Shown: piece by piece, positions 7,262 to 26,827 of the stretch | Layout of the letters: each line of letters starts with the position of its first letter | Position numbering within the stretch: position 1 is the stretch's first letter | Assembly: GCF_000025505.1 (NCBI RefSeq) | Contig: NC_013849.1 | Location: 2,040,001-2,072,000, forward strand | From: Ferroglobus placidus DSM 10642 | Lineage (GTDB): Archaea > Halobacteriota > Archaeoglobi > Archaeoglobales > Archaeoglobaceae | Length of the DNA stretch: 32,000 nucleotides | Reading direction: 5' to 3' | The notes under the pieces: model-generated | Database searches by the model: none | What the model was told of the DNA's origin: nothing | Seen by the model: only the letters and a program-made list of their open reading frames with translations | Translations under genes and position numbers: made by a program

Positions 7262-8347
7262 ATGATACCCGTAGCAACACCCATGATTGGTGAGGAGGAA
7301 ATTCAGGAAGTTGTAGAAGTCCTGAAATCTGGAATGATCGCTCAAGGAAAGCGTGTGGAGGAGTTTGAAAAGCTGTTTTCTGAGTACGTTGGAGTTGATT
7401 TTGCAGTAGCAGTGTCAAACGGCACAGCTGCTCTGGACATCGCTTTAAAAGCCTGCGGGATTGGAGAAGGAGATGAAGTTATAACGACGCCTTTCACATT
7501 CATAGCATCAGCCAACGCTATACTTTTCCAGAGAGCAAAGCCTGTTTTTGCCGACATTGAAGAAGACACATACAACATAAATCCGGAAGATGTTGTCGAA
7601 AAAATTACCCCGAGAACGAAAGCCATTATCGGAGTGCATCTCTTTGGACAGCCTTTCGATTTGAAATCAATTCTCGAAATCTGCGAGGATCACAATCTAA
7701 TTTTAATAGAGGACTGCGCTCAAGCCCACGGAGCTGAGTATGACGGAAAAAAGGTGGGAAGCTTCGGAGTTGGATGCTTTTCGTTTTACGCAACGAAGAA
7801 CATGACCACAGCGGAGGGTGGAATGATAACATCCAACGATGAAAGAATTGCAAAACTTTGTAAACTCTTGAGAAGCCACGGAGAAAGCAAAAAATACTTC
7901 CACGAAATTCTCGGGCATAACATGAGAATGACTGACATTCAGGCGGCCATAGGAATCGTACAGTTGAAAAAGCTTGACTGGATGAACGAGAGGAGAAGGA
8001 AAAACGCCGAATATTACAACAAAAATATTAAGGTTGAGGGTTTGAGGAAACCGAAAGAAAAGTACGGAAAACACGTTTACCATCAGTACGTTTTGTATCT
8101 CGAAGAAGATTTTCCGATGAGCAGGAACGAATTTTCACGGTATTTGGCGGAAAAAGGGATTAGTAACGCGGTACATTATCCAAAGCCGGTTTATCTGCAA
8201 CCACTCTACAAAAAACTGGGGTACGAAGAAGGGTTGTGTCCAGTGGCTGAAGAGACGGCGAAAAGGGTAATAAGTATTCCTGTGCATCCTTTACTGACAA
8301 GGAATGAACTTGAATACATCGTGATGACAATTAACAAAGTTATATGA
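7262..8347 (+). CDS. DegT/DnrJ/EryC1/StrS-family PLP sugar aminotransferase (WbpE-like)
   Basis: 361 aa. The ...FSFYATKNMTTAEGGM... motif has Lys in the PLP-binding position, and the architecture is typical of the family. Confidence 0.9.
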   Translation: MIPVATPMIGEEEIQEVVEVLKSGMIAQGKRVEEFEKLFSEYVGVDFAVAVSNGTAALDIALKACGIGEGDEVITTPFTFIASANAILFQRAKPVFADIEEDTYNINPEDVVEKITPRTKAIIGVHLFGQPFDLKSILEICEDHNLILIEDCAQAHGAEYDGKKVGSFGVGCFSFYATKNMTTAEGGMITSNDERIAKLCKLLRSHGESKKYFHEILGHNMRMTDIQAAIGIVQLKKLDWMNERRRKNAEYYNKNIKVEGLRKPKEKYGKHVYHQYVLYLEEDFPMSRNEFSRYLAEKGISNAVHYPKPVYLQPLYKKLGYEEGLCPVAEETAKRVISIPVHPLLTRNELEYIVMTINKVI

Positions 8348-8470: not shown

Positions 8471-9394
8471 ATGATATTTGGGGTTTTGGGAGTAGGAGTA
8501 ATGGGGAAAAACCACGTTAGGGTTTTGAACGAGATAAAAAAAGTCGACGAGGTTGTCATTTACGATGCAAAAGATGAGAGGGTTAAAGAAGTTTCAAAAG
8601 AATTTGAGGTGACACCAGCGGCTTCGTTTGAAGAGTTTTTGAGCTATTGTGATGCAATTTCAATCTGCACGCCAACTTCTCAGCATTACGAGCATATAGC
8701 AAGATGCCTGAAAAACGGTAGGAGAGATAAATCGATATTTGTAGAAAAGCCGATAGCTTCCTGCTACAAGGAGGGTTTAGGGATTCTAAAGTTAATAAAA
8801 GGGAAAGAGCTCGTTTTCGGAGTAGGACACATAGAGCGATTCAATCCGATAATCAGAGAAATCTGCGATTTAGATGTGGAGATAGAGTATGTAGACATAA
8901 AAAGACACAATCCTTCTTCTTCAAGAGTAACCGACACGACCGTTGTTGAAGATTTAATGATACATGATATTGACATAGTTTTTAACGTGCTGTTACCAAA
9001 CAAAGACTTCAGACTTTCTGCAAGCGGAAACAAGAATATAATGCATATTCTTGCAAAGTTTGACGATACTGTAGTTTCCCTTTCAGCCAGTAGAATTTCC
9101 TCAAAGAAGATAAGAAAAATACACATCGAAAACCACAACCTGACTATCGAAGGAGATTACATGGATCAAGAGCTTTACATATTCAGAGGTCCTCAGATAT
9201 ATCGGACTGTAAACGAAAAATACGTTCAGGAAAATGTGATGGAGAAGGTGCTTATAAACAAAGTTGAACCACTGAAAGTTGAACTAAAATCATTTGTCGA
9301 TTGCGTTAACAGCGGAGAAGATTTCTCCGTCACAGCTGAACAAGCTGTAAACAACTTAAGAATATGTGAGCTCATATGGAAGAAAGCACGTTAG
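8471..9394 (+). CDS. Gfo/Idh/MocA-family NAD-dependent sugar oxidoreductase (WbpB-like)
   Basis: Rossmann N-terminus MIFGVLGVGVMGKNH plus an EKP motif. The ORF track starts at 8432 with an alternative codon. The ATG at 8471 or the GTG at 8459 (after ggagg at 8450..8454) is a more plausible start. Confidence 0.8.
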   Translation: MIFGVLGVGVMGKNHVRVLNEIKKVDEVVIYDAKDERVKEVSKEFEVTPAASFEEFLSYCDAISICTPTSQHYEHIARCLKNGRRDKSIFVEKPIASCYKEGLGILKLIKGKELVFGVGHIERFNPIIREICDLDVEIEYVDIKRHNPSSSRVTDTTVVEDLMIHDIDIVFNVLLPNKDFRLSASGNKNIMHILAKFDDTVVSLSASRISSKKIRKIHIENHNLTIEGDYMDQELYIFRGPQIYRTVNEKYVQENVMEKVLINKVEPLKVELKSFVDCVNSGEDFSVTAEQAVNNLRICELIWKKAR

Positions 9395-9966
9395 ATTTTC
9401 ACGCTCATTCTACAGCTATAGTTGAGAGCGACGAGATTGGAGAAGGGACGAAAATTTGGCACTTCGCTCACGTTAGAGAGAAAGCGAAAATTGGAAAGAA
9501 CTGCAACATAGGCAAAGGAGTTTACATCGACACAGAAGTGATTATAGGGAATAACGTGAAAATTCAAAACTTTGCAACGATTTACAGAGGTGTGATTGTG
9601 GAGGATGACGTTTTTATCGGTCCAGCGGTAGTTTTCACAAATGATTTGTATCCAAGGGCTTTTATCTGGAGCGAAGAAAAAATAGAAAAAACAATTGTGA
9701 AAAAAGGGGCAAGCATTGGAGCAAACTCAACAGTAATCTGTGGAATTGAAATTGGGAAATACGCTATGGTAGGTGCGGGAAGCGTTGTCACGAAAAGTGT
9801 TCCACCTCACGCTCTCGTTTACGGGAATCCAGCCAAGCTGAAAGGCTTTGTCTGCTACTGCGGGAGAAAGCTGGAGAAAATTTTAAAGAAGAAAGCTGAA
9901 AGCTTCGTCTATGAATGTCATAACTGCGGGGAAGTTGTAGAAATAAAGAAGGAGTGGTTGAGGTGA
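9376..9966 (+). CDS. Hexapeptide-repeat N-acetyltransferase (WbpD/WlbB-like) with a C-terminal Cys4 tail
   Basis: 196 aa. Left-handed beta-helix repeats (IGKNCNIGKGVYI, IGNNVKI, IGANSTV...). The tail reads CYC...CHNC. Overlaps the upstream gene by 19 nt. Confidence 0.85.
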   Translation: MEESTLDFHAHSTAIVESDEIGEGTKIWHFAHVREKAKIGKNCNIGKGVYIDTEVIIGNNVKIQNFATIYRGVIVEDDVFIGPAVVFTNDLYPRAFIWSEEKIEKTIVKKGASIGANSTVICGIEIGKYAMVGAGSVVTKSVPPHALVYGNPAKLKGFVCYCGRKLEKILKKKAESFVYECHNCGEVVEIKKEWLR

Positions 9967-18427: not shown

Positions 18428-19483
18428 ATGAAAGCCCTAATTCTTTCTGGCGGGCATGGAACTCGGTTGAGACCTTTAACCTACTCTCAACAGAAACAGC
18501 TCATACCTGTTGCAAACAAGCCGGTTTTATTTTATGCTATAGAGGATGTTATAGAAGCCGGTGTTAAGGAAATTGGGATTATAACCGGTCCGAATCGAGA
18601 GCAGGTTATTGAAACTGTCAACTCAGTTGATTGGGATGCTGAAATTACTTTCATTCATCAAGGAGATCCGAAAGGCTTGGCACATGCGATTCTTGTGGCT
18701 GAGGAATTCCTCGATAACGAAGAATTCGTAATGTATCTTGGTGATAATATCCTTAGAGATGGTATTGTTGATCATGCTAACAAGTTCAAGGAATTGAATC
18801 CGGACGCACTCATACTACTTACAGAGGTTGAAGAACCTCAACGCTTTGGAGTTGCTGAATTAGATGAAAACGGCAGAGTGAAGAGGTTAATAGAAAAGCC
18901 AAGAGTACCGCCATCTAACTATGCATTGGTTGGTGTTTACTTTTTTAAGCCCATAATTATAGAAGCTTGCAAAAATATCAAACCCTCTTGGAGGAACGAG
19001 CTTGAGATTACAGATGCAATTCAATGGCTTATCGACAACGGTTACAGGATTGAAGCATCTATTGTTACAGGATGGTGGAAAGACACTGGTAAGCCGGAGG
19101 ATATTTTAGAAGCTAACAGGCTCGTTTTGGATGAAATTGATGCAAAATGCGAAGGAATTTTGGAGAACTCGAAAGTTGTTGGAAGGGTTGTGATCGAGAA
19201 GAATTGTGTTGTTAAAAACTCAATAATAAAAGGTCCTTGCGTTATCGGGAAGAATTGCGTAATAGAAAACTCCTATATAGGACCTTACACATCCATAGGA
19301 GATAACTGCAAAATCGTGGAAACTGAGATTGAGGACAGCGTTATTATGGAGGGTAGTGAGATAATAAATGCTGGAAGAATTGTAGAGAGTTTAATAGGCA
19401 GAAATGTCGTAATTCGAAAGGGAGATTCGAAGCCGAGTGGTCAGAGATTCGTTGTGGGAGATAGCTCGCAAATAGTGTTGTGA
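18428..19483 (+). CDS. rmlA: Glucose-1-phosphate thymidylyltransferase, long form (with C-terminal hexapeptide domain)
   Basis: 351 aa. LSGGHGTRLRPLTYSQQKQLIPV signature and a beta-helix C-terminus. First gene of the rmlA-B-D-C series. Confidence 0.9.
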   Translation: MKALILSGGHGTRLRPLTYSQQKQLIPVANKPVLFYAIEDVIEAGVKEIGIITGPNREQVIETVNSVDWDAEITFIHQGDPKGLAHAILVAEEFLDNEEFVMYLGDNILRDGIVDHANKFKELNPDALILLTEVEEPQRFGVAELDENGRVKRLIEKPRVPPSNYALVGVYFFKPIIIEACKNIKPSWRNELEITDAIQWLIDNGYRIEASIVTGWWKDTGKPEDILEANRLVLDEIDAKCEGILENSKVVGRVVIEKNCVVKNSIIKGPCVIGKNCVIENSYIGPYTSIGDNCKIVETEIEDSVIMEGSEIINAGRIVESLIGRNVVIRKGDSKPSGQRFVVGDSSQIVL

Positions 19484-19487
19484 TAAC

Positions 19488-19995
19488 ATGAAAGTGCTAG
19501 TTACAGGAGGTCTGGGCTTCATAGGGAGTAACTTCGTAAGGTATATCTTAGAGAGGTATTCGGATGTTGAAGTTATTAACGTGGATGCAATGAAATACGG
19601 ATCGAATCCAGCAAATCTCAAAGATGTCGAGAACGACGAGAGGTATTCCTTCATTAAAGGCGATATATCTGATTATAAACTTATGTCTAAACTCGTAAGA
19701 GATGTAGACATTGTAATAAATTTCGCAGCGGAGACACATGTTGATAGGAGCATATCCAACCCGCAATCTTTTTTACAAAGTAACGTTGTTGGAATTTTTA
19801 CAATACTCGAAGCTTTGAGAAGGGAAAATCCTGAAGCTAAATTAGTTCACATCTCTACGGATGAAGTATACGGGGATATTTTAAACGGATCTTTCAGGGA
19901 AGATGATAGATTGAAACCTTCTTCACCGTATTCAGCGAGTAAGGCAGCTGCGGATATGTTTGTTCTTGCTTATGTAAGAACTTATGGCTTGCACG
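19488..19995 (+). pseudogene. rmlB: dTDP-glucose 4,6-dehydratase, 5' part (interrupted by the IS)
   Basis: MKVLVTGGLGFIGSNF..., the catalytic YSASKAA, then ...RTYGLH. After that the frame runs into IS sequence. It joins in frame with 21219..21712. Confidence 0.9.
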
Positions 19996-20009
19996 ACTTT
20001 GGGACAAAA

Positions 20010-20978
20010 TTACCTCATCACCCTCACAGCAAATATGTTGTGCCAAAGCCCGACAGCAAACAAAGCCATCTCTCTCCTGTCCTCCCTCCTCTGCCTTATC
20101 AACCATCCAAATCTCCTCTTATCAGCAGAAAATCCTGCCTCACTTAAGTTCCTCTTGAAGTACCTCTTCAGAAACCTATAAGGAGCTTCAACAATCCTCT
20201 CGATAACCCTCAACCAGTCAAATCCTATTCTGGCAAGATTTCGCTTTGGAATGACGTAGACAGCTGTCTCAGCATCAAACAGCCTCAGAGTCTTCCTACT
20301 GCTGTAATACTTATCCAGAGAAATCGAGTTTACCTTCACCCCCATGCTTTTGAGCATTCCTAAAGCCTTCTCAAAGGCATCTTTCTCAGATCTGTCAGAA
20401 TAGCCAAAGCCAACGTACATTCCCGTATCGATGTCAATTATCCTGAAAACGTATCTGAAGTCTTTACCTTTCCTTTTTAGATTGCTTCTATAGTGCTTAG
20501 TGATGGTTAGGCTGTATCCTGTCCCATCTCCTGAAAAATCTCCTGAAACTCCTTCCTCTCTAAGCAGAAGGATGAAGAGGTTGTGTAAAGCCATTCTAAC
20601 TTCTTCATCCGAGTATAATCTTTCTATCGTTTTGTAGCTAACCTTTATCCCGAATAAAGGTTCAAACAGCTCTAAAAGCTCCTCAATATCTCTGTTTGAT
20701 TTGTCCATCAGCCTTGCAAACAGAAAGAGCATAACTCTCTTCTCCAGATCAACTTTCTTTGGTCTTCCCACCCTCTTTTGCACGGTTATCACAGAAATAG
20801 CCTCTCTAACGTATTCAGGGAGTTTTCTCAGCCTTTCCTTAACAACTTCTCTCTTCCTCTCCCATTCTGTGTACGGATACTTTTCCTTCTCCTCCTGTCT
20901 TATCTCCTCTGCAATTTCATCCAAAACATCCAGAAGTTCCCTTACAAACTTCCCTGTCACTCTGAATCCAAGGTTCAT
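20010..20978 (-). CDS. IS transposase (ISA1214-like)
   Basis: 322-aa ORF that fills the element. It sits between the IRs and is unrelated to the rml context. Confidence 0.85.
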   Translation of the reverse strand: MNLGFRVTGKFVRELLDVLDEIAEEIRQEEKEKYPYTEWERKREVVKERLRKLPEYVREAISVITVQKRVGRPKKVDLEKRVMLFLFARLMDKSNRDIEELLELFEPLFGIKVSYKTIERLYSDEEVRMALHNLFILLLREEGVSGDFSGDGTGYSLTITKHYRSNLKRKGKDFRYVFRIIDIDTGMYVGFGYSDRSEKDAFEKALGMLKSMGVKVNSISLDKYYSSRKTLRLFDAETAVYVIPKRNLARIGFDWLRVIERIVEAPYRFLKRYFKRNLSEAGFSADKRRFGWLIRQRREDRREMALFAVGLWHNIFAVRVMR

Positions 20979-21029
20979 GTTCTGATTCCAACCAAAAAGT
21001 ATTTAAGTATTTCTATGGATATACTTAAC

Positions 21030-21188
21030 ATGAGGAGGGTTGAAGTGAAGAAGGGAGATTTTGTTCTGAAAGAGGAGGTTGAGGTTGTTTTCGAGAAGAG
21101 AGTCACGCCTTTCGGTAATTCAGCAAAGGTTGATGTGCCCAAGAGGTATATTGGGTGGAGAGCGTATGTGATTGTTGTCAGGGATTAA
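21030..21188 (+). CDS. Small transposon-encoded protein (DUF2080-like)
   Basis: MRRVEVKKGDFVLKEEVEVVFEKRVTPFGNSAKVDVPKRYIGWRAYVIVV. The TPFGNS...VPK..IG pattern matches the archaeal transposon-associated DUF2080 family as I remember it. An alternative ATG lies at 21015. Divergent from the transposase. Confidence 0.65.
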   Translation: MRRVEVKKGDFVLKEEVEVVFEKRVTPFGNSAKVDVPKRYIGWRAYVIVVRD

Positions 21189-21208
21189 AGGAATTTTGTC
21201 CCAAAACC

Positions 21209-21712
21209 GGCTTGCACGCTATGATTACAAGGTGCACGAATAACTATGGACCCTATCAGTTCCCGGAGAAGCTGATTCCTAAGACAATTATCAGAGCATC
21301 GATGGGTCTAAAAGTGCCCATTTACGGGACTGGCAAGAACGTTAGAGATTGGATCTACGTTTTGGATCACTGCGAAGCAATAAATTTAGTGATGAGGGAA
21401 GGAGAGAAAGGTGAGATCTACAACATCTCAAGCGGGGAGGAGAAAACTAATTTAGAAGTCGTGAAAACAATTCTCGATCTCATGGGCAAGGATGATAGCT
21501 TAATCGAGTTCGTTGAAGACAGACCAGGACACGATATGAGGTATAGCTTAGATTCCTCAAAAATCAGAGAAGAATTAGGTTGGAAACCCAAGCACAGCTT
21601 TGAGGAAGGGATAAGGGAAACTGTGAAATGGTATCTGCAGAATGAGTGGTGGTGGAAACCTTTAGCTGACGAAAGAGTGTTGCATCCGACTCCTTGGAAG
21701 CTAAGGTGGTAA
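21209..21712 (+). pseudogene. rmlB: dTDP-glucose 4,6-dehydratase, 3' part
   Basis: Reads GLHAMITRCTNNYGPYQFPEKLIPK...DRPGHDMRY... Removing the IS plus one repeat copy gives an uninterrupted 1002-nt (334-codon) reading frame. Confidence 0.9.
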
Positions 21713-21744
21713 TGTTTAAAAAGTGTCATTTCAAACATATCACC

Positions 21745-21990
21745 ATGGTATCTGATGTGGAAATAATTAAAGATTTGGATAAACAGGGTAGGTTGGTATT
21801 GCCAAAGGAATGGAGGGAAAAATACGCTAAGAGGGGGAAAGTAATTCTGAAAGTAGAGAACGACACTATCGTAATAAAGCCGTATAAATTAGCGGATCTA
21901 ACGGAATTCTTCGATAAAATTGAGGTTGACATTAAGTCCGATCTATCTGACTGGAAATCTGTAAGGAGGGAGCTACTTGAGGTTCGTTGA
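21745..21990 (+). CDS. vapB: AbrB/SpoVT-type antitoxin (VapB-like)
   Basis: MVSDVEIIKDLDKQGRLVLPKEWREKY...IVIKP is the swapped-hairpin motif. Overlaps the downstream PIN gene. Alternative start at 21712. Confidence 0.75.
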   Translation: MVSDVEIIKDLDKQGRLVLPKEWREKYAKRGKVILKVENDTIVIKPYKLADLTEFFDKIEVDIKSDLSDWKSVRRELLEVR

Positions 21991-22393
21991 TGCAAGCGTT
22001 TTTGTTCACGCATATCTTAAGCCGAAAAGAAAACTTAAGCCTAATGAAGTTAAGGTGAAGGAATCTGCCAAAGAGATCGTGAAGAGAATCAACGATGGTG
22101 AAGAAGTCGGTATAACTGTCGTGCAGATAACTGAGATAGCAAACCTGTTGGAGAGTTATTTACCTCTTAGCGAGGCTCTGAAGGTTGAGGAGTTTCTTCT
22201 ATTAGCTGGAAACGTGAAGGTTTTTGATGTTACGAAGAAAGATTGTTTGAAAGCTGTGAAGATAGCCAAGGAGAAAGATGTTGGATTGAGCGATGCGATA
22301 GCTTACGTGGTAATGAAGAAAAACAGCGTTGGGGAGATATATTCGTTCGATACCGATTTCGACAAGCTTGATGTGACAAGGGTTACAGAGTGA
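21977..22393 (+). CDS. vapC: PIN-domain toxin (VapC)
   Basis: 138 aa. N-terminal RFVDASVFV, then ...LSDAIAYV... and a C-terminal SFDTDF motif. TTG start. Confidence 0.8.
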   Translation: MRFVDASVFVHAYLKPKRKLKPNEVKVKESAKEIVKRINDGEEVGITVVQITEIANLLESYLPLSEALKVEEFLLLAGNVKVFDVTKKDCLKAVKIAKEKDVGLSDAIAYVVMKKNSVGEIYSFDTDFDKLDVTRVTE

Positions 22394-22397
22394 TAAC

Positions 22398-23270
22398 ATG
22401 AGAATTTTCATCACTGGGGGAAGCGGTCTTTTGGGAAGCAAATTGGCTGAGATAGCTTTGGAAAAGGGGTATGAAGTTTATTCTGGTTACAACAGTCATA
22501 AGCCCGAGTTTGGTAAGCCGGTTAAGTTTGACTTAGCTAATTCAGATAGTGTTGTAAGAGCTATTAGCGAAGTTAAGCCAGATGTGATTGTCCACTCTGC
22601 AGCACTTACAGATGTTGACAGGTGCGAAGTTGAGAAAGATCTAGCCTATAAGATAAACGTTGAAGGAACTAAGATCGTTGCTGAAATGGCAAGAAAGGTT
22701 GGAGCTTACATGGTTTACATCTCAACGGATTACGTTTTCGATGGAGAGAGGGGGATGTACAAGGAGGAAGATGAAACCCATCCCATTAACTATTACGGCT
22801 ACACGAAGCTGTTAGGAGAGAAATACTGTCGGGATTTCTGCATTGCAAGAACTTGCGTTATATACGGAGCGAAACCGGCAAGCGGTAAGGTTAACTTCGC
22901 TTTGTGGTTGATTAACAAGCTCGAGAACGGAGAAAGCGTTAAAATCGTTACTGATCAGTTTATTACTCCTACTTTAAACACCAACCTTGCTAAGATGGTT
23001 TTTGAATGTGCAGAACGGAAGCTAAAAGGAGTTTTCCATTTAGCTGGAGCAACGAGAGTTTCGAGGTTCGAATTCGCTAAAGAAATTGCAAGAGTCTTTG
23101 GATTGGATGATAGTTTGATTACTCCATCAAGAATGGACGAAATAAACTGGATCGCTAAAAGACCAAGGGATTCGTCTCTCGATACTTCTAAAGCTCGGAA
23201 TTTGCTCGATGAAAAACCTTACGAGTTGAGAAAAGCTTTAAAGACTCTTAAAGATGAGATTGAGGTGTAA
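22398..23270 (+). CDS. rmlD: dTDP-4-dehydrorhamnose reductase
   Basis: 290 aa. MRIFITGGSGLLGSKL, STDYVFDG and YGYTKLLGE (the YxxxK motif). Confidence 0.9.
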   Translation: MRIFITGGSGLLGSKLAEIALEKGYEVYSGYNSHKPEFGKPVKFDLANSDSVVRAISEVKPDVIVHSAALTDVDRCEVEKDLAYKINVEGTKIVAEMARKVGAYMVYISTDYVFDGERGMYKEEDETHPINYYGYTKLLGEKYCRDFCIARTCVIYGAKPASGKVNFALWLINKLENGESVKIVTDQFITPTLNTNLAKMVFECAERKLKGVFHLAGATRVSRFEFAKEIARVFGLDDSLITPSRMDEINWIAKRPRDSSLDTSKARNLLDEKPYELRKALKTLKDEIEV

Positions 23271-23272
23271 CT

Positions 23273-23389
23273 ATGCTTCCCGGCATAGTTATCAAGCCCT
23301 TAAAGAGGTTTGCAGATGAGAGGGGATTTTTCACCGAAATAATGCGTAAGGACTGGGACATCTTAAAAAGCAAACCCAAATGTTTTTAA
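23273..23389 (+). pseudogene. Duplicated 5' end of rmlC (38-codon stub)
   Basis: MLPGIVIKPLKRFADERGFFTEIMRKDW..., then unrelated sequence and a stop. Positions 23301..23356 are identical to 24036..24091. The first 28 nt differ from the real rmlC at 8 positions, mostly synonymous. Confidence 0.8.
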
Positions 23390-23392
23390 GAT
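23360..23392 (+). promoter_or_regulatory. Perfect 10-bp inverted repeat at the left edge of the inserted cassette (operator or hairpin candidate)
   Basis: atcttaaaaa (23360..23369) and tttttaagat (23383..23392) are separated by a 13-nt loop. The repeat lies about 20 nt upstream of the ATG at 23412, and the right arm resembles a TATA box. Confidence 0.35.
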
Positions 23393-23411
23393 TTAGGATG
23401 GAGAAGAAATT

Positions 23412-23660
23412 ATGATTTCGATAAGAAGAGAAGTTCATGAAGAGATTTTGAAAAGACTTCTCACTGAGCTTGAATATTACGAGGCTATTATCGCTAAATT
23501 TGAGAAAAAATACAAATGCTCTTTAGATGAGCTAGAAAGAAAAATTGAAAGAGAAGGTGTGCCTTTAGACAACCACGAAATTTGGGAAGATAGTATAGAA
23601 TGGAGAAATGCCGTTGAAGAGGTAGAAAGACTAAAGAAGCTCATAGAAGAGTTAAAATGA
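23412..23660 (+). CDS. 82-aa coiled-coil protein, putative partner or antitoxin of the downstream gene
   Basis: Charged, helical sequence. ATGA overlap with the next ORF. Family not recognised. Confidence 0.55.
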   Translation: MISIRREVHEEILKRLLTELEYYEAIIAKFEKKYKCSLDELERKIEREGVPLDNHEIWEDSIEWRNAVEEVERLKKLIEELK

Positions 23661-23995
23661 CTGAAATCCTTAAAAAAGTCGCAAAGAAGTTGCTGGATTA
23701 CGACATCGTATTAAAAGTGGAATTTTTGGGGACAAAGGTCAGGGCTTATTTGGTTAATGGATACGTTCTTGATGTATATTATAACCAAACGCTTGGAAAA
23801 TATAGCTACACACTAATAAGAGAGAACAGGAGAATAATTGGATGGGATAACGCACCGCACCACGTATCTGTAAGAACACATCCAGACCATTTTCATGACG
23901 TAGATGGAAAAATTAAGCCATCGTATTTGTCTGGAAATCCTCTGAAAGATTTGAATGAAGTCCTAAATGTTATTAGGAATGTGTTATTGGATTGA
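23657..23995 (+). CDS. DUF6516 / TumE-like putative toxin
   Basis: 112 aa. IGWDNAPHHVSVRTHPDHFHD resembles the (Y/W)DNAPHH...FPHHKH signature of the TumE/DUF6516 family as I remember it. Its last codons and stop lie inside the duplicated rmlD 3' sequence gattgaggtg. Confidence 0.6.
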   Translation: MTEILKKVAKKLLDYDIVLKVEFLGTKVRAYLVNGYVLDVYYNQTLGKYSYTLIRENRRIIGWDNAPHHVSVRTHPDHFHDVDGKIKPSYLSGNPLKDLNEVLNVIRNVLLD

Positions 23996-24007
23996 GGTGG
24001 TGTAATC

Positions 24008-24508
24008 ATGCTCCCTGGTATAGTTGTTAAACCTCTAAAGAGGTTTGCAGATGAGAGGGGATTTTTCACCGAAATAATGCGTAAGGACTGGAGTGATATT
24101 TTCAAAGATGAGATAGTTCAGGCGAATCTGTCAATTACCTATCCAGGGATCGTTAGAGCCTGGCACAAACACGAGAGGGGACAAGTTGATTACTTTGTCT
24201 GCATTAAAGGAGCAATCAAAATTTGTGTCTACGATGAAAAAACTCAGGAGTTAGCTGAAATTATTTCCACTGGAGATAATCCTCAAGTTGTCAGAGTTCC
24301 CGGGCACTACTGGCATGGGTTTAAAGCTATCGGCGTTGAGCCAGCGATGTTGGTCTATTTCGTGAGTAGGTTGTATGATTACGAGAACCCTGACGAAGTG
24401 CGGAGACCTTGGAACGATCCTACAGTAGTTCCAAAGATAATAAATGGTAGAACTGACGATCCCCGCTGTAACAAGCCGTGGGACTGGTTCTACCCACCAT
24501 ATAAATAA
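24008..24508 (+). CDS. rmlC: dTDP-4-dehydrorhamnose 3,5-epimerase family (cupin)
   Basis: 166 aa. FADERGFFTE, WHKHERGQVDYF..., and the rml context. Confidence 0.8.
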   Translation: MLPGIVVKPLKRFADERGFFTEIMRKDWSDIFKDEIVQANLSITYPGIVRAWHKHERGQVDYFVCIKGAIKICVYDEKTQELAEIISTGDNPQVVRVPGHYWHGFKAIGVEPAMLVYFVSRLYDYENPDEVRRPWNDPTVVPKIINGRTDDPRCNKPWDWFYPPYK

Positions 24509-24601
24509 AATAGTTTGAAATGTTTATAAAAAATTTTATAAAATGGAGATGAGGGTAATGCCTCAGTAATGTTTATATTCAATTAGTTGGATAAATCGGT
24601 G

Positions 24602-24886
24602 ATGATGTGTCCGCATTGCAAATCGATAAAAACTGTGAAAATGGGCTGTTATTACACGAAATCTGGTGAGAGGAGGCAGAGATACAAATGCAAGAGCTGC
24701 GGGAGAACTTTCGTTTTGAATCCGATAAAGCCGAGGAATTATCCCGAGGAATTTAAGGAGATGGTAGTTAGAGCTGTTGTGAAGGAGGGTGTAGGGATAA
24801 GACAAGCGAGCAGAATTTTCAAGCTTTCTCCTAACACTGTGACAGCTTGGGTAAGAGAATTTTCTAAAAAAAGACCTGAGAAATGA
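24602..24886 (+). CDS. IS1 InsA-like zinc-finger/HTH protein (orfA)
   Basis: MMCPHCKS...YKCKSCGRTF zinc finger followed by an HTH region (GIRQASRIFKLSPNTVTAWV). A GGTGAT sits immediately upstream of the ATG. Confidence 0.75.
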   Translation: MMCPHCKSIKTVKMGCYYTKSGERRQRYKCKSCGRTFVLNPIKPRNYPEEFKEMVVRAVVKEGVGIRQASRIFKLSPNTVTAWVREFSKKRPEK

Positions 24887-25301
24887 GATTAGATCGGAAA
24901 AGCCTGTTATCGAGTTAGATGAAGCTTGGAGTTTTGTTAAGAAAAAGGAAAACGAAATCTGGATTTGGATTGCTTTAGAGAGAAATTCCCGAAAAATAAT
25001 AAGTTATGCAATAGGAGATCGTTCTGTGGATACTTTCAAGAAATTGTGGGACGGAATTGGCGATGAAATAAAGCGGAAAGCAATTTTCTACACGGATCGC
25101 TGGGACGCTTATAATTTGATTCCTTACAGGCAGAGAATCGTAAGAAGAGGAGGAACGAACCACGTTGAAAGGTTATTCTTAACTCTGAGAAATGATAATC
25201 CGAGATTCGCAAGAAAATCAATCAGATTCTCAAAATCCTCGGAAATGCTCGAAAATTCTTTTAAATTGTGGATTCATTACTATAATTTATCAACATTATA
25301 G
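24855..25301 (+). CDS. IS1 InsB-like DDE catalytic part (orfB), no start of its own, +1 frame relative to orfA
   Basis: The frame is open from 24855: ...ELDEAWSFVKKKENEIWIWIALERNSRKIISYAIGDRS...FYTDRWDAY...NHVERLF..., the IS1 DDE motifs. It overlaps orfA across the A7 run at 24866..24872. Confidence 0.7.
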   Translation, partial: ENFLKKDLRNEIRSEKPVIELDEAWSFVKKKENEIWIWIALERNSRKIISYAIGDRSVDTFKKLWDGIGDEIKRKAIFYTDRWDAYNLIPYRQRIVRRGGTNHVERLFLTLRNDNPRFARKSIRFSKSSEMLENSFKLWIHYYNLSTL

Positions 25302-25387
25302 TGACACTACCGAGATGAGAACCAATCAAGTCTTTCAGAGGATAGCAAGAGGGTCAGAGATAGTATTCGTTGACACAATTATCTCAG

Positions 25388-26827
25388 CTATATTTTTTTC
25401 ATCATCTTTAATTCACTTATTTTTTGGCTGATTAATATTTTCTCTTCTTTGCTCCTTAGGTCGCTTAGCCAAGCAAATAATCTTTCTTTGAGATCTTTAA
25501 CAATTTCGGGTCTATCTTCAACAATATTCTGAACTTCCTTTGGATCACTCTTTAGGTGATAAAGTTCTTCAATCCCTCCGTGAATTACACCACAATATCT
25601 ACATGTCGCAGCTTCTTTTGAGGGAGAATATATATACTTCCATTTTTTAGTTCTGATAGCCATTTTCCTTTCAGTATAAGACTCTTCAGCAACTATGAAA
25701 GAGCGAGGAGAGTTTGTTTCTCCACTCATTACTGGAACTAAAGATTCACCGTCAAATTCAGATCTATTAAACGGGATATTTAAAACATCTAAGATAGTAG
25801 GTACAACATCAACATGTTGAACAAAATCTTTAATCCTCTTTCGCTCAAAATCGAGTGGTATATTACTGAAAATTAAAGGAACATGTATGGACACATCATA
25901 CAAACCATGGTGATCAAAAAAATCCCATGTTCTGTTAAACTTTCTCCATGATCAGAGGTTATTACAAAAATTGTATTATCATAAATCCTCTTATCTTTGA
26001 GAAAATCTATTAATCTTCCAATCTCTTGATCAACATATCTTATTGCTGAATCGTACATTGCAATCACTTCTTCAGCAGTTGTTTGCTCCCCAAAAGCCTT
26101 CAGTAAATAGTCTTTCCACTCTTTATTGTTTATATTTGTGAGCAATTCTTTTAATTCTTTACTCTTCCCTTTTCTCTTGGGTTTAAATTCAGTATAAATA
26201 TCTTCTGGAGCACTATAAGGTGTGTGTATCCCAATAATGTATGAAAAGAAAGAAAGGTTTATCACAGTTACTAATGAGTTTTAATGCTGTATCAGTTAAT
26301 TCAGTTGCAGCATAAGTAGATGGCAAAATATTCTTATTTCTAATCTTTTTAATGAGTTCCGTAACTTTACCTGAAAAAGTTTTAGGAAATCGGCTTATAA
26401 TTTTTGAAAATACTACAGATAATGTTGAATGCTTTTTCTGTATAGTATCTCCAAAATAATATTCAAACCCTTTTTTGTGCCATCTGCCAAGCCAGTCTAT
26501 TCCAAAGGTGATATAACCGTTGTCTCTTAATATTTCTGACAAAAACCTAATTTTTCGTTTATAGAACTCCTGAATCATAGAATTTGTAACTTTTGAGCCA
26601 TGATTTCTTATACCGTGAGATATTGGATATTTACCCGAAAGTATTGTGGTAACTGAAGGATCTGTAGCATTAGCACAACTAAAAGCATTTTCGAATAAAA
26701 CACCTTCATTGACCAACTTATCTATGTTGGGGCTGGTCTTTTTTGTGTAACCATAACAGCCTAAATGGTCTGCTCTAAGAGCATCTATTATTATCATGAC
26801 AACATTACTTTTTATCATTAACATCAC
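25388..26827 (-). pseudogene. Sulfatase-like alkaline-phosphatase-superfamily enzyme, broken by two frameshifts
   Basis: Three consecutive ORFs (26213..26827, 25873..26265, 25388..25903) join to form one sulfatase-fold protein: IIIDALRADHLGCYG..., HYWDTHT|PYSAPE, SDHGESLTEHGIF|(F)DHHGLYDVSIHVPLIF, ELYHLKSDPKEVQN. Confidence 0.8.

Follow-up and report, generated by a model that had tools for sequence, protein, structure and literature searches.

A candidate TumE-family toxin-antitoxin cassette within a mosaic duplication of the rmlC 5' end in Ferroglobus placidus

The rmlD-rmlC junction and its direct repeat

The DNA analyzed here is a 32,000-nucleotide (nt) stretch of the genome of Ferroglobus placidus DSM 10642 (contig NC_013849.1, positions 2,040,001 to 2,072,000), referred to as the window. 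Coordinates are positions within it unless a related locus, labeled by an L-number, is named. Between rmlD and rmlC lies a 735-bp unit with two genes, designated tumA and tumE, which form a candidate toxin-antitoxin (TA) cassette. The unit is bracketed by two copies of the rmlD-rmlC junction together with the first part of rmlC (Table 1). The upstream copy belongs to a short rmlC stub, whose allele starts ATGCTTCCCGGCATAGTTATC, and the downstream copy to the intact rmlC, the product of which shows 80-90% amino acid identity with RmlC of Archaeoglobi. The open reading frames (ORFs) of tumA and tumE share 4 nt (ATGA), while the spacers are 22 nt from the stub ORF to tumA and 12 nt from tumE to rmlC, which has the same orientation. 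The ORF coordinates and the tight coupling agree with those given in an earlier note on this DNA, which had been made from the sequence and its ORFs. Look-ups of TumE and RmlC by exact sequence gave no result, and in homology searches both proteins of the pair matched proteins of F. placidus DSM 10642 at 100% identity. Located 17-29 nt upstream of tumA is a TATA-like sequence, AAATGTTTTTAAGATTTA (23383-23395), which is kept in loci L002, L003, L082, L083, L005, L015 and L167 and is probably the promoter of the tumA-tumE pair itself.

Table 1. Features of the rmlD-rmlC junction of F. placidus (positions within the window; aa, amino acids)
Feature	Position	Strand	Basis
rmlD (dTDP-4-dehydrorhamnose reductase), upstream flank	22398..23270	+	TIGR01214, 263.6 bits vs cut-off 224; Pfam RmlD_sub_bind, E = 3.7e-77
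Left copy of junction repeat: Shine-Dalgarno sequence GAGGTG, rmlD stop codon, spacer, rmlC nt 1-84	23258..23356	+	Repeat search and gapped alignment
rmlC stub ORF, 38 aa (MLPGIVIKPLKRFADERGFFTEIMRKDWDILKSKPKCF), intact; rmlC homology to ~23370	23273..23389	+	Sequence reading; alignment with rmlC alleles and other stubs
56-nt tract exactly matching 24036-24091; proposed crossover, gap-repair or gene-conversion tract	23301..23356	+	Comparison of copies
Left end of cassette: diverged stub tail (GACATCTTAAAAAG), then conserved AAATGTTTTTAAGATTTA	23357..23411	+	
tumA-like antitoxin candidate, 82 aa, PF27273 (MJ0235 family), all-helical	23412..23660	+	Precomputed Pfam annotation; AlphaFold2 model
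tumE toxin candidate, 112 aa, GWDNAPHH...PDHFH motif	23657..23995	+	PF20126 match; AlphaFold2 model
Right copy of junction repeat: tumE stop codon, Shine-Dalgarno sequence GAGGTGGTG, spacer, nt 1-84 of functional rmlC	23990..24091	+	
rmlC, intact (cupin-type dTDP-4-dehydrorhamnose 3,5-epimerase family)	24008..24508	+	Pfam dTDP_sugar_isom, E = 2.1e-13

A repeat search returned a direct repeat of 93 nt with 89% identity (23264-23356 and 23999-24091, spacing 735). Gapped alignment, with one 3-nt GTG indel before TAA, lengthened it to the two junction copies of Table 1, and both analyses bore out the division of the repeat into a diverged and an identical part that had been described previously. 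In rmlC coordinates the copies differ at eight positions (nt 6, 9, 12, 19, 21, 24, 27 and 28), and nt 29-84 are identical at 56 of 56 positions. Seven of the eight differences are synonymous, and the remaining one is an Ile-to-Val replacement. The probability that all eight fall within the first 28 of 84 nt is 7e-5, and that of at least seven of eight being synonymous (28% expected) is 8e-4; the clustering of the differences in nt 1-28 is not due to chance. The window contains exactly two occurrences of the 54-mer starting at 23303, against a chance expectation of 0. Since only 39-51 of the 56 positions of nt 29-84 agree with the window in 20 related rmlC genes, conservation alone cannot account for the identical tract.

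Beyond nt 84 the left copy reads GACATCTTAAAA, in which diverged rmlC homology extends to about nt 97 (23357-23370), and the identical tract therefore has diverged homology on both flanks. This tail resembles an allele short of one codon, as is seen by comparison with the rmlC of L019, L015 and Geoglobus acetivorans. The presumed native F. placidus allele, composed of stub nt 1-28 and rmlC nt 29-140, was 89% identical to the rmlC of L002 over the first 140 nt and 78% identical over the remaining gene (p = 0.005), and because of this step exchange tracts appear to end inside rmlC. No terminal inverted repeats, recombinase or transposase were found in the 735-bp unit by the repeat search and in the ORF list.

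The tumA-tumE pair and related junctions

The 112-aa protein, which the earlier note had placed in the DUF6516/TumE family, matched Pfam PF20126 (TumE, formerly DUF6516) with 54.9 bits against a gathering cut-off of 23.4 (E = 8.6e-15), residues 31-108 aligning to profile positions 2-78 of 81. An AlphaFold2 (AF2) model based on 38 homologues (predicted local distance difference test score, pLDDT, 86.2; predicted template-modeling score, pTM, 0.81) consists of a helix (3-12), seven strands and a second helix (95-111). This is the published alpha+beta fold of TumE, in which two helices lie on a seven-stranded antiparallel sheet. The near-invariant residues include GWDNAPHH and PxHFH. No significant match to TumE or its 82-aa partner was obtained by sequence and fold searches of the PDB, and none was found for TumE by Durairaj et al. 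(2023; PMC10584680) either. In that study the toxins of six gammaproteobacterial TumE-TumA pairs were toxic, their partners were neutralizing and one of the toxins inhibited translation.

The 82-aa partner had no match in the local Pfam copy; by precomputed annotation, it and all of its relatives belong to PF27273 ("MJ0235"). Its AF2 model has three helices (pLDDT 92.9), and its family carries an invariant HEIWEDSIEWRNA.EE motif. A relative of the partner lies directly upstream of a TumE relative (39-86% identity) in 80 of the 80 metagenomic loci examined, and the same order was observed in every genome locus with TumE. The ratio of nonsynonymous to synonymous substitution rates (dN/dS) for tumA and tumE was 0.04-0.19, and both genes are under purifying selection. 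PADLOC gave sub-threshold matches only, Rfam gave no match in 21000-26000, and a literature search returned nothing on MJ0235 or on TA systems of F. placidus.

Based on family membership and architecture, the 735-bp unit is predicted to be a type II TA cassette of the TumE-TumA superfamily whose toxin would act in its own host, and the TA architecture proposed for the gene pair in the earlier note stands. TumE would be a translation-inhibiting toxin and a putative histidine-dependent RNase, neutralized by the MJ0235-family protein encoded just upstream. The pair had also been described as uncharacterized in archaea. This holds for experiments and not for naming, as NCBI calls the relatives TumE family toxins and Pfam has an MJ0235 family; with the pair already covered by both, this part of the locus is ordinary.

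A scan for RmlC, with one genome per species, gave 80 loci, among which the proposed search for empty and filled sites found rmlD-rmlC junctions of both kinds in related archaeal genomes. Empty junctions, with rmlD-rmlC gaps of 3-11 nt, were present in L001, L006, L007, L010, L014 and L017. That of L001 reads GAGGTGTAACT ATG, identical to the upstream context of the left copy in the window. The tumA-tumE pair is located between rmlD and rmlC in L002, L003, L005, L015, Archaeoglobus veneficus and G. acetivorans, and directly upstream of rmlC on the short metagenomic contigs L166 and L167 (rmlD not on the contig). The cassette is not a one-off: the same stub and cassette occur in A. veneficus, G. 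acetivorans and several metagenome-assembled genomes (MAGs).

All junctions filled with tumAE have in common the right stub end, GGGAYATCTTAAAAAG, and after it AAATGTTTTTAAGATTTA upstream of tumA, which points to one founding event. Within the stubs, internal deletions differ from locus to locus. The stub of F. placidus is complete and open, those of L002 and L003 are complete but frameshifted, with GTG as the start and with a stop codon, and that of L167 is complete without a start codon; the stubs of A. veneficus and G. acetivorans have internal deletions, and only the last few bases are left in L005 and L015. Such varied decay indicates that the stub is dispensable. The stub of G. acetivorans has a lineage-specific 17-mer in common with its own rmlC. 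The sole exception to the siting at rmlD-rmlC is L019, an Archaeoglobus MAG with tumAE between rmlB and rmlD (7362-8001). The rmlD-rmlC junction of the same locus (8980-9844) has an rmlC stub followed by a UPF0175/MazF cassette; this stub ends at about the same rmlC position (~nt 95) as the tumAE stubs, and its first 48 nt match the rmlC of its own genome at 46 of 48 positions. In L002, the stub and the preceding mazF 3' end match the functional arrangement of L005 and L011, in which a mazF or tumE tail is followed by rmlC, and it looks as if a mazEF cassette had already been present upstream of rmlC when tumAE was inserted into that gene. The L002 contig is binned as "Candidatus Heimdallarchaeota" and is nearly identical at this locus to the Geoglobus MAG contig L003 (comparison of L002 with L003/L086); the binning is probably an error in the public record.

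The divergence of the cassette was compared with that of its flanks at fourfold degenerate sites. Identity of F. placidus with L002, the closest long locus, was 0.77 for tumA and tumE and 0.42 for rmlD and rmlC (Fisher p = 2e-5); with A. veneficus the values were 0.60 and 0.31 (p = 5e-4), and with L166, for which tumE was compared with rmlC only, 0.82 and 0.45 (p = 9e-4). The values for G. acetivorans, 0.48 and 0.38, were not significantly different. Likewise, the Nei-Gojobori proportion of synonymous differences (pS) from L002 was 0.30-0.37 in the cassette and 0.74-0.81 in the flanks. The cassette is thus younger than its flanks, and the much lower divergence at its fourfold sites indicates that it is mobile, having passed between lineages in which the silent sites of the rml genes are saturated. 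Between L002 and L005 the order is reversed, with a pS of 0.55 for rmlD and 0.76 for tumA, so the histories of cassette and flank are incongruent.

One proposal, that tumE ends within borrowed rmlD 3' sequence, was not sustained. It was founded on a 10-nt identity, GATTGAGGTG, which contains the rmlC Shine-Dalgarno sequence (6 of the 10 bases). The same tumE 3' end, GGATTGAGGTGG, is present in L167, where vapC is upstream of the stub, and GGACTGAGGAGGT is found at the end of tumE in L002 and L166, the rmlD of L002 ending differently. The match to the F. placidus rmlD is put down mostly to functional convergence plus one C-to-T change, and to judge from these loci the Shine-Dalgarno segment travels with the cassette. 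An origin of the C-terminal tail of the toxin (VLNVI...) from the rmlD 3' end was also considered and rejected: in the AF2 model the C-terminal helix is part of the native TumE fold, an equivalent helix is encoded by TumE genes outside rml contexts (L084, L019), and the mazF tail of L002 aligns over its full length with the mazF of L019. Separately, the last ~47 nt of tumE in L005 (9950-10000) are 94% identical to the 3' end of a mazF-like gene in L002 (2700-2753; also in P0012), with the tail VLNVIKEI[IV]GAEEV, which suggests that toxin genes of different folds have swapped 3' ends along with the rmlC junction.

Arrival of the cassette

The two copies of the repeat are joined to arms of different provenance. 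Upstream of the identical tract, the left copy has the native rmlD-rmlC junction of the host, matching the empty site of L001, and the right copy has the tumE 3' end and GGATTGAGGTGGTGTAATC; downstream of the tract, the left copy continues into the stub tail and the promoter-like box. The upstream arm of the right copy and the downstream arm of the left copy recur in the closest cassette, L167, where they lie downstream of vapC. Target homology is therefore duplicated with host arms outside and element arms inside, the arrangement by which homologous insertion is recognized, and with the common tract in the middle it fits either a single crossover with a circle or "ends-in" gap repair. The synonymous character of the divergence at nt 1-28 suggests that both 5' ends served a working rmlC in separate lineages until they were joined. 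The best reading of this pattern is the one put forward previously, in which a diverged rmlC allele took part in recombination or gene conversion and the breakpoint lay inside rmlC.

From these comparisons, it is somewhat more probable than the reverse that tumAE arrived by homologous, recombinase-free integration through a fragment of the target gene which it carried; the comparative support for this is good. At its right end, the cassette would carry the rmlC Shine-Dalgarno sequence and the first ~30-100 nt of rmlC from an earlier host. Lacking a recombinase of its own, it would enter the 5' end of the resident rmlC by homologous recombination, either in Campbell fashion from a circle or by the "ends-in" route from a linear fragment broken within its homology, in which case the gap would be repaired from the chromosome and both copies would become the same across it. 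The rmlC gene would stay intact since the element provides a new 5' end, and the 5' end of the host gene would be displaced upstream as the stub. The 56 identical nt would mark the site of crossover, gap repair or heteroduplex correction: to the left of it, the left copy would be of host and the right copy of element origin, and to the right the assignment would be reversed.

Several observations weigh against this interpretation of the locus, and some of them concern the gene pair. The NCBIfam equivalog NF045777, which was built on tested TumE, gave only 14.6 bits against a cut-off of 90, and over residues 49-86 only; the F. placidus TumE accordingly represents a distant subfamily, to which toxicity is ascribed by relationship. 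DNA binding with autoregulation is typical of type II antitoxins and was predicted for TumA by Durairaj et al. (Nature 2023; PMC10584680), and the partner encoded here is without a recognizable DNA-binding fold, its fold matches being generic coiled coils with E > 0.5. The comparison with G. acetivorans does not show the cassette to be significantly younger than its flanks. As for the repeat, the two copies could equally have become identical over the tract by gene conversion within this genome at a later time, the high conservation of nt 29-84 prevents their assignment to donor or host, and a single exchange does not explain the mosaic of F. placidus, L002 and L167. No circular or linear intermediate or excision product is on record, no virus or plasmid carrier was found, and the viral contigs and plasmids searched had no TumE relative. 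Finally, rmlB is split by an insertion sequence (IS) in this strain, and selection on rmlC may for that reason now be relaxed.

Among the alternatives, a single ancient insertion in the ancestor of the Archaeoglobaceae, followed by vertical inheritance, deserves the most attention, though it is rather unlikely. The F. placidus pattern would then be the result of ectopic conversion from rmlC to the stub (nt 29-84) and of replacement of the rmlC 5' end by ordinary strain exchange of the rml region. Gene conversion proceeds readily between short direct repeats at a distance of 735 bp, and the same stub end at all tumAE-filled loci would follow naturally from one founding event; the stub of F. placidus, however, is still a functional-looking allele in nt 1-28, identical to the working rmlC of L002 at 26 of 28 positions, which is unexpected in an old pseudogene, and other stubs are without a start codon, frameshifted or partly deleted. 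Similar divergence of cassette and flanks, as vertical descent predicts, is seen against G. acetivorans, whereas in three of the four comparisons the fourfold divergence of the cassette is significantly below that of both flanking genes, and the trees are incongruent, as the pS values for L002 and L005 given above illustrate. An improbable explanation is that a site-specific recombinase acting in trans inserts TA cassettes at a core in the rmlC 5' end, the 56 identical nt being this core. Archaeal integrase cores of 40-60 bp are known. An identical core between host and element arms does resemble attL and attR, and the stub ends at ~nt 95 for the tumAE cassettes and the L019 mazEF cassette alike, but there is no integrase in or beside the cassette, where the nearby mobile genes are IS transposases. 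Moreover, the core is identical in F. placidus only; stub and resident rmlC differ at 6-7 core positions in L002, L003 and L167, with no shorter perfect core evident, and other TA families are found at rmlD-rmlC without any stub.

Hardly any credence can be given to a transposase-made target-site duplication or to an assembly artifact as the origin of the repeat. IS elements do occur nearby, one in rmlB (3 kb upstream) and one 80 nt beyond rmlC; nevertheless, the repeat is 99-102 nt long and non-identical, with clustered differences, and the unit has neither terminal inverted repeats nor a transposase, in keeping with the dismissal of a target duplication in the earlier note. The same architecture in independent assemblies of other species contradicts an artifact. 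It is also very unlikely that the tumAE pair is a regulator or accessory factor of rhamnose or glycan synthesis which co-evolved with the rml operon, instead of a TA module. Such a role would agree with its orientation along rmlC, its tight packing against this gene and its recurrence in rml operons of Archaeoglobaceae, but not with the close relatives found elsewhere, for example in Freyarchaeota beside a DUF433/DUF5615 pair and Rad50/Mre11-like genes. Most of the metagenomic loci are unrelated contexts, many rml operons are without the pair, five further families of bona fide TA modules are found at the rmlD-rmlC junction, and the family has been validated as TA in bacteria (PMC10584680).

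Homologous integration through a carried rmlC fragment might, as a tentative generalization that is itself rather doubtful, extend beyond this locus. TA cassettes of thermophilic archaea may spread without a recombinase, taking part of the target gene along with them as a homology arm. With each integration the target would be restored and the previous 5' end left behind, so that the junction would record arrivals in order, with the newest beside rmlC, and cassettes would trade toxin 3' ends among themselves.

Other modules, neighboring genes and comparison with known systems

Across archaea, six TA families were identified at the rmlD-rmlC junction, namely tumAE and five others; this list was drawn only from loci containing rmlC and is no measure of enrichment over other operon junctions. 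AF2212-like/PIN pairs are present in L013 (830-1479), L004, L005, A. veneficus and L167, with a remnant in L008, and UPF0175/PemK-MazF pairs in L002 (2106-2751), L011 and L019. A ParE pair is located in L008 (9469-9985), a PIN_2 pair in L025 (9327-9967), a Methanophagaceae MAG, and an MNT/HEPN pair in L040 (9499-9985), a Methanophagales MAG; the families at this junction thus occur also in ANME-1/Methanophagales MAGs. The remnant in L008 (9391-9445) consists of 10 codons of an AF2212-like antitoxin (MPKIIEVNNI*) right after rmlD, which suggests that an older vapBC cassette was replaced there by the ParE pair.

The window represents a surface-glycan cluster with genes for UDP-glucose dehydrogenase, nucleotidyltransferases, glycosyltransferases and a rhamnosyl O-methyltransferase-like protein, and rmlA. 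A further TA-like pair, an AbrB/MazE-type antitoxin and a PIN toxin (vapBC-like), is situated exactly between rmlB and rmlD (21745-22393). It was also found at rmlB-rmlD in L004, and the antitoxin alone in L008; an rmlD stub was looked for upstream of the pair in the window, and nothing convincing was found. An insertion sequence of ~1.2 kb (19998-21205) with perfect 14-nt terminal inverted repeats (TTTGGGACAAAATT and AATTTTGTCCCAAA) splits rmlB, and encodes on the minus strand a 322-aa ORF (20010-20978) for which Pfam gave no match; this strain may have lost a working rhamnose pathway. Located 80 nt downstream of rmlC is an IS1-like element (24587-25301) composed of an InsA-like zinc-ribbon/helix-turn-helix ORF and a separate short DDE_Tnp_IS1 fragment, and this element is frameshifted or degenerate. 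On the minus strand (25388-26827), a sulfatase-family gene appears to be divided into three consecutive ORFs of 171, 130 and 204 aa and is probably a pseudogene. The 12-mer GTGATAACATGA occurs at 19480-19491 and 22390-22401, preceding and overlapping the start codons of rmlB and rmlD, and is likely a common translational-coupling signal.

The movement of chromosomal TA pairs between genomes is poorly understood, and this locus offers a concrete and testable footprint of it: a 735-bp cassette without a recombinase, whose neutral divergence is below that of the flanks, and a duplicated part of the target gene in which host, identical and element sequence succeed one another. In different archaea, TA modules of at least six families have settled at one operon junction in a surface-glycan cluster. 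The inferred mode of movement is of greater interest than the TA pair itself. The TumE-TumA superfamily, so far tested only in gammaproteobacteria, reaches hyperthermophilic archaea with a different antitoxin family (MJ0235).

With the described superfamily (PMC10584680), the F. placidus pair shares a Pfam domain above threshold, the predicted fold, a bicistronic arrangement and a toxin gene downstream of that for a small partner. It differs in its archaeal host, in its score against NF045777 (14.6 versus 90 bits), in being known from sequence and models, and in its antitoxin, a helical MJ0235 protein (PF27273), whereas a RelB-like partner was noted for one cluster-1 gene of that study (PMC10584680). 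The type II TA modules of thermophilic archaea (VapBC, MazEF, HEPN-MNT, ParDE) are similar in size, gene order and, elsewhere, siting at rmlD-rmlC, but have other toxin folds, and an rmlC stub precedes only tumAE and one mazEF (L019).

Integron cassette arrays offer a parallel in their small promoter-proximal cassettes, often TA pairs, inserted in one orientation at one site, with the newest apparently beside the fixed end; the order in L002 is an older pseudo-tumA/mazEF, stub, tumAE and rmlC. Unlike integrons, the rmlC junction has no integrase, attI or attC, and its repeats are fragments of the target gene. Campbell-type insertion-duplication and "ends-in" gap repair of the Orr-Weaver and Szostak type are known from engineered plasmids. 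As here, homology is directly duplicated around the insert, and the copies are the same across the repaired gap with parental sequence outside; we know of no natural TA cassette described with such integration as its routine mode of spreading. The prophage e14 and phage 21 integrate into icd of E. coli, carrying a replacement gene end. These elements are tens of kb in size, encode their own integrase and replace the 3' end, whereas the unit described here is 735 bp, has no recombinase and concerns the 5' end. In both cases a diverged copy on the element, with mostly synonymous changes, keeps the target gene intact, and the displaced native end persists as a stub on the other side of the element.

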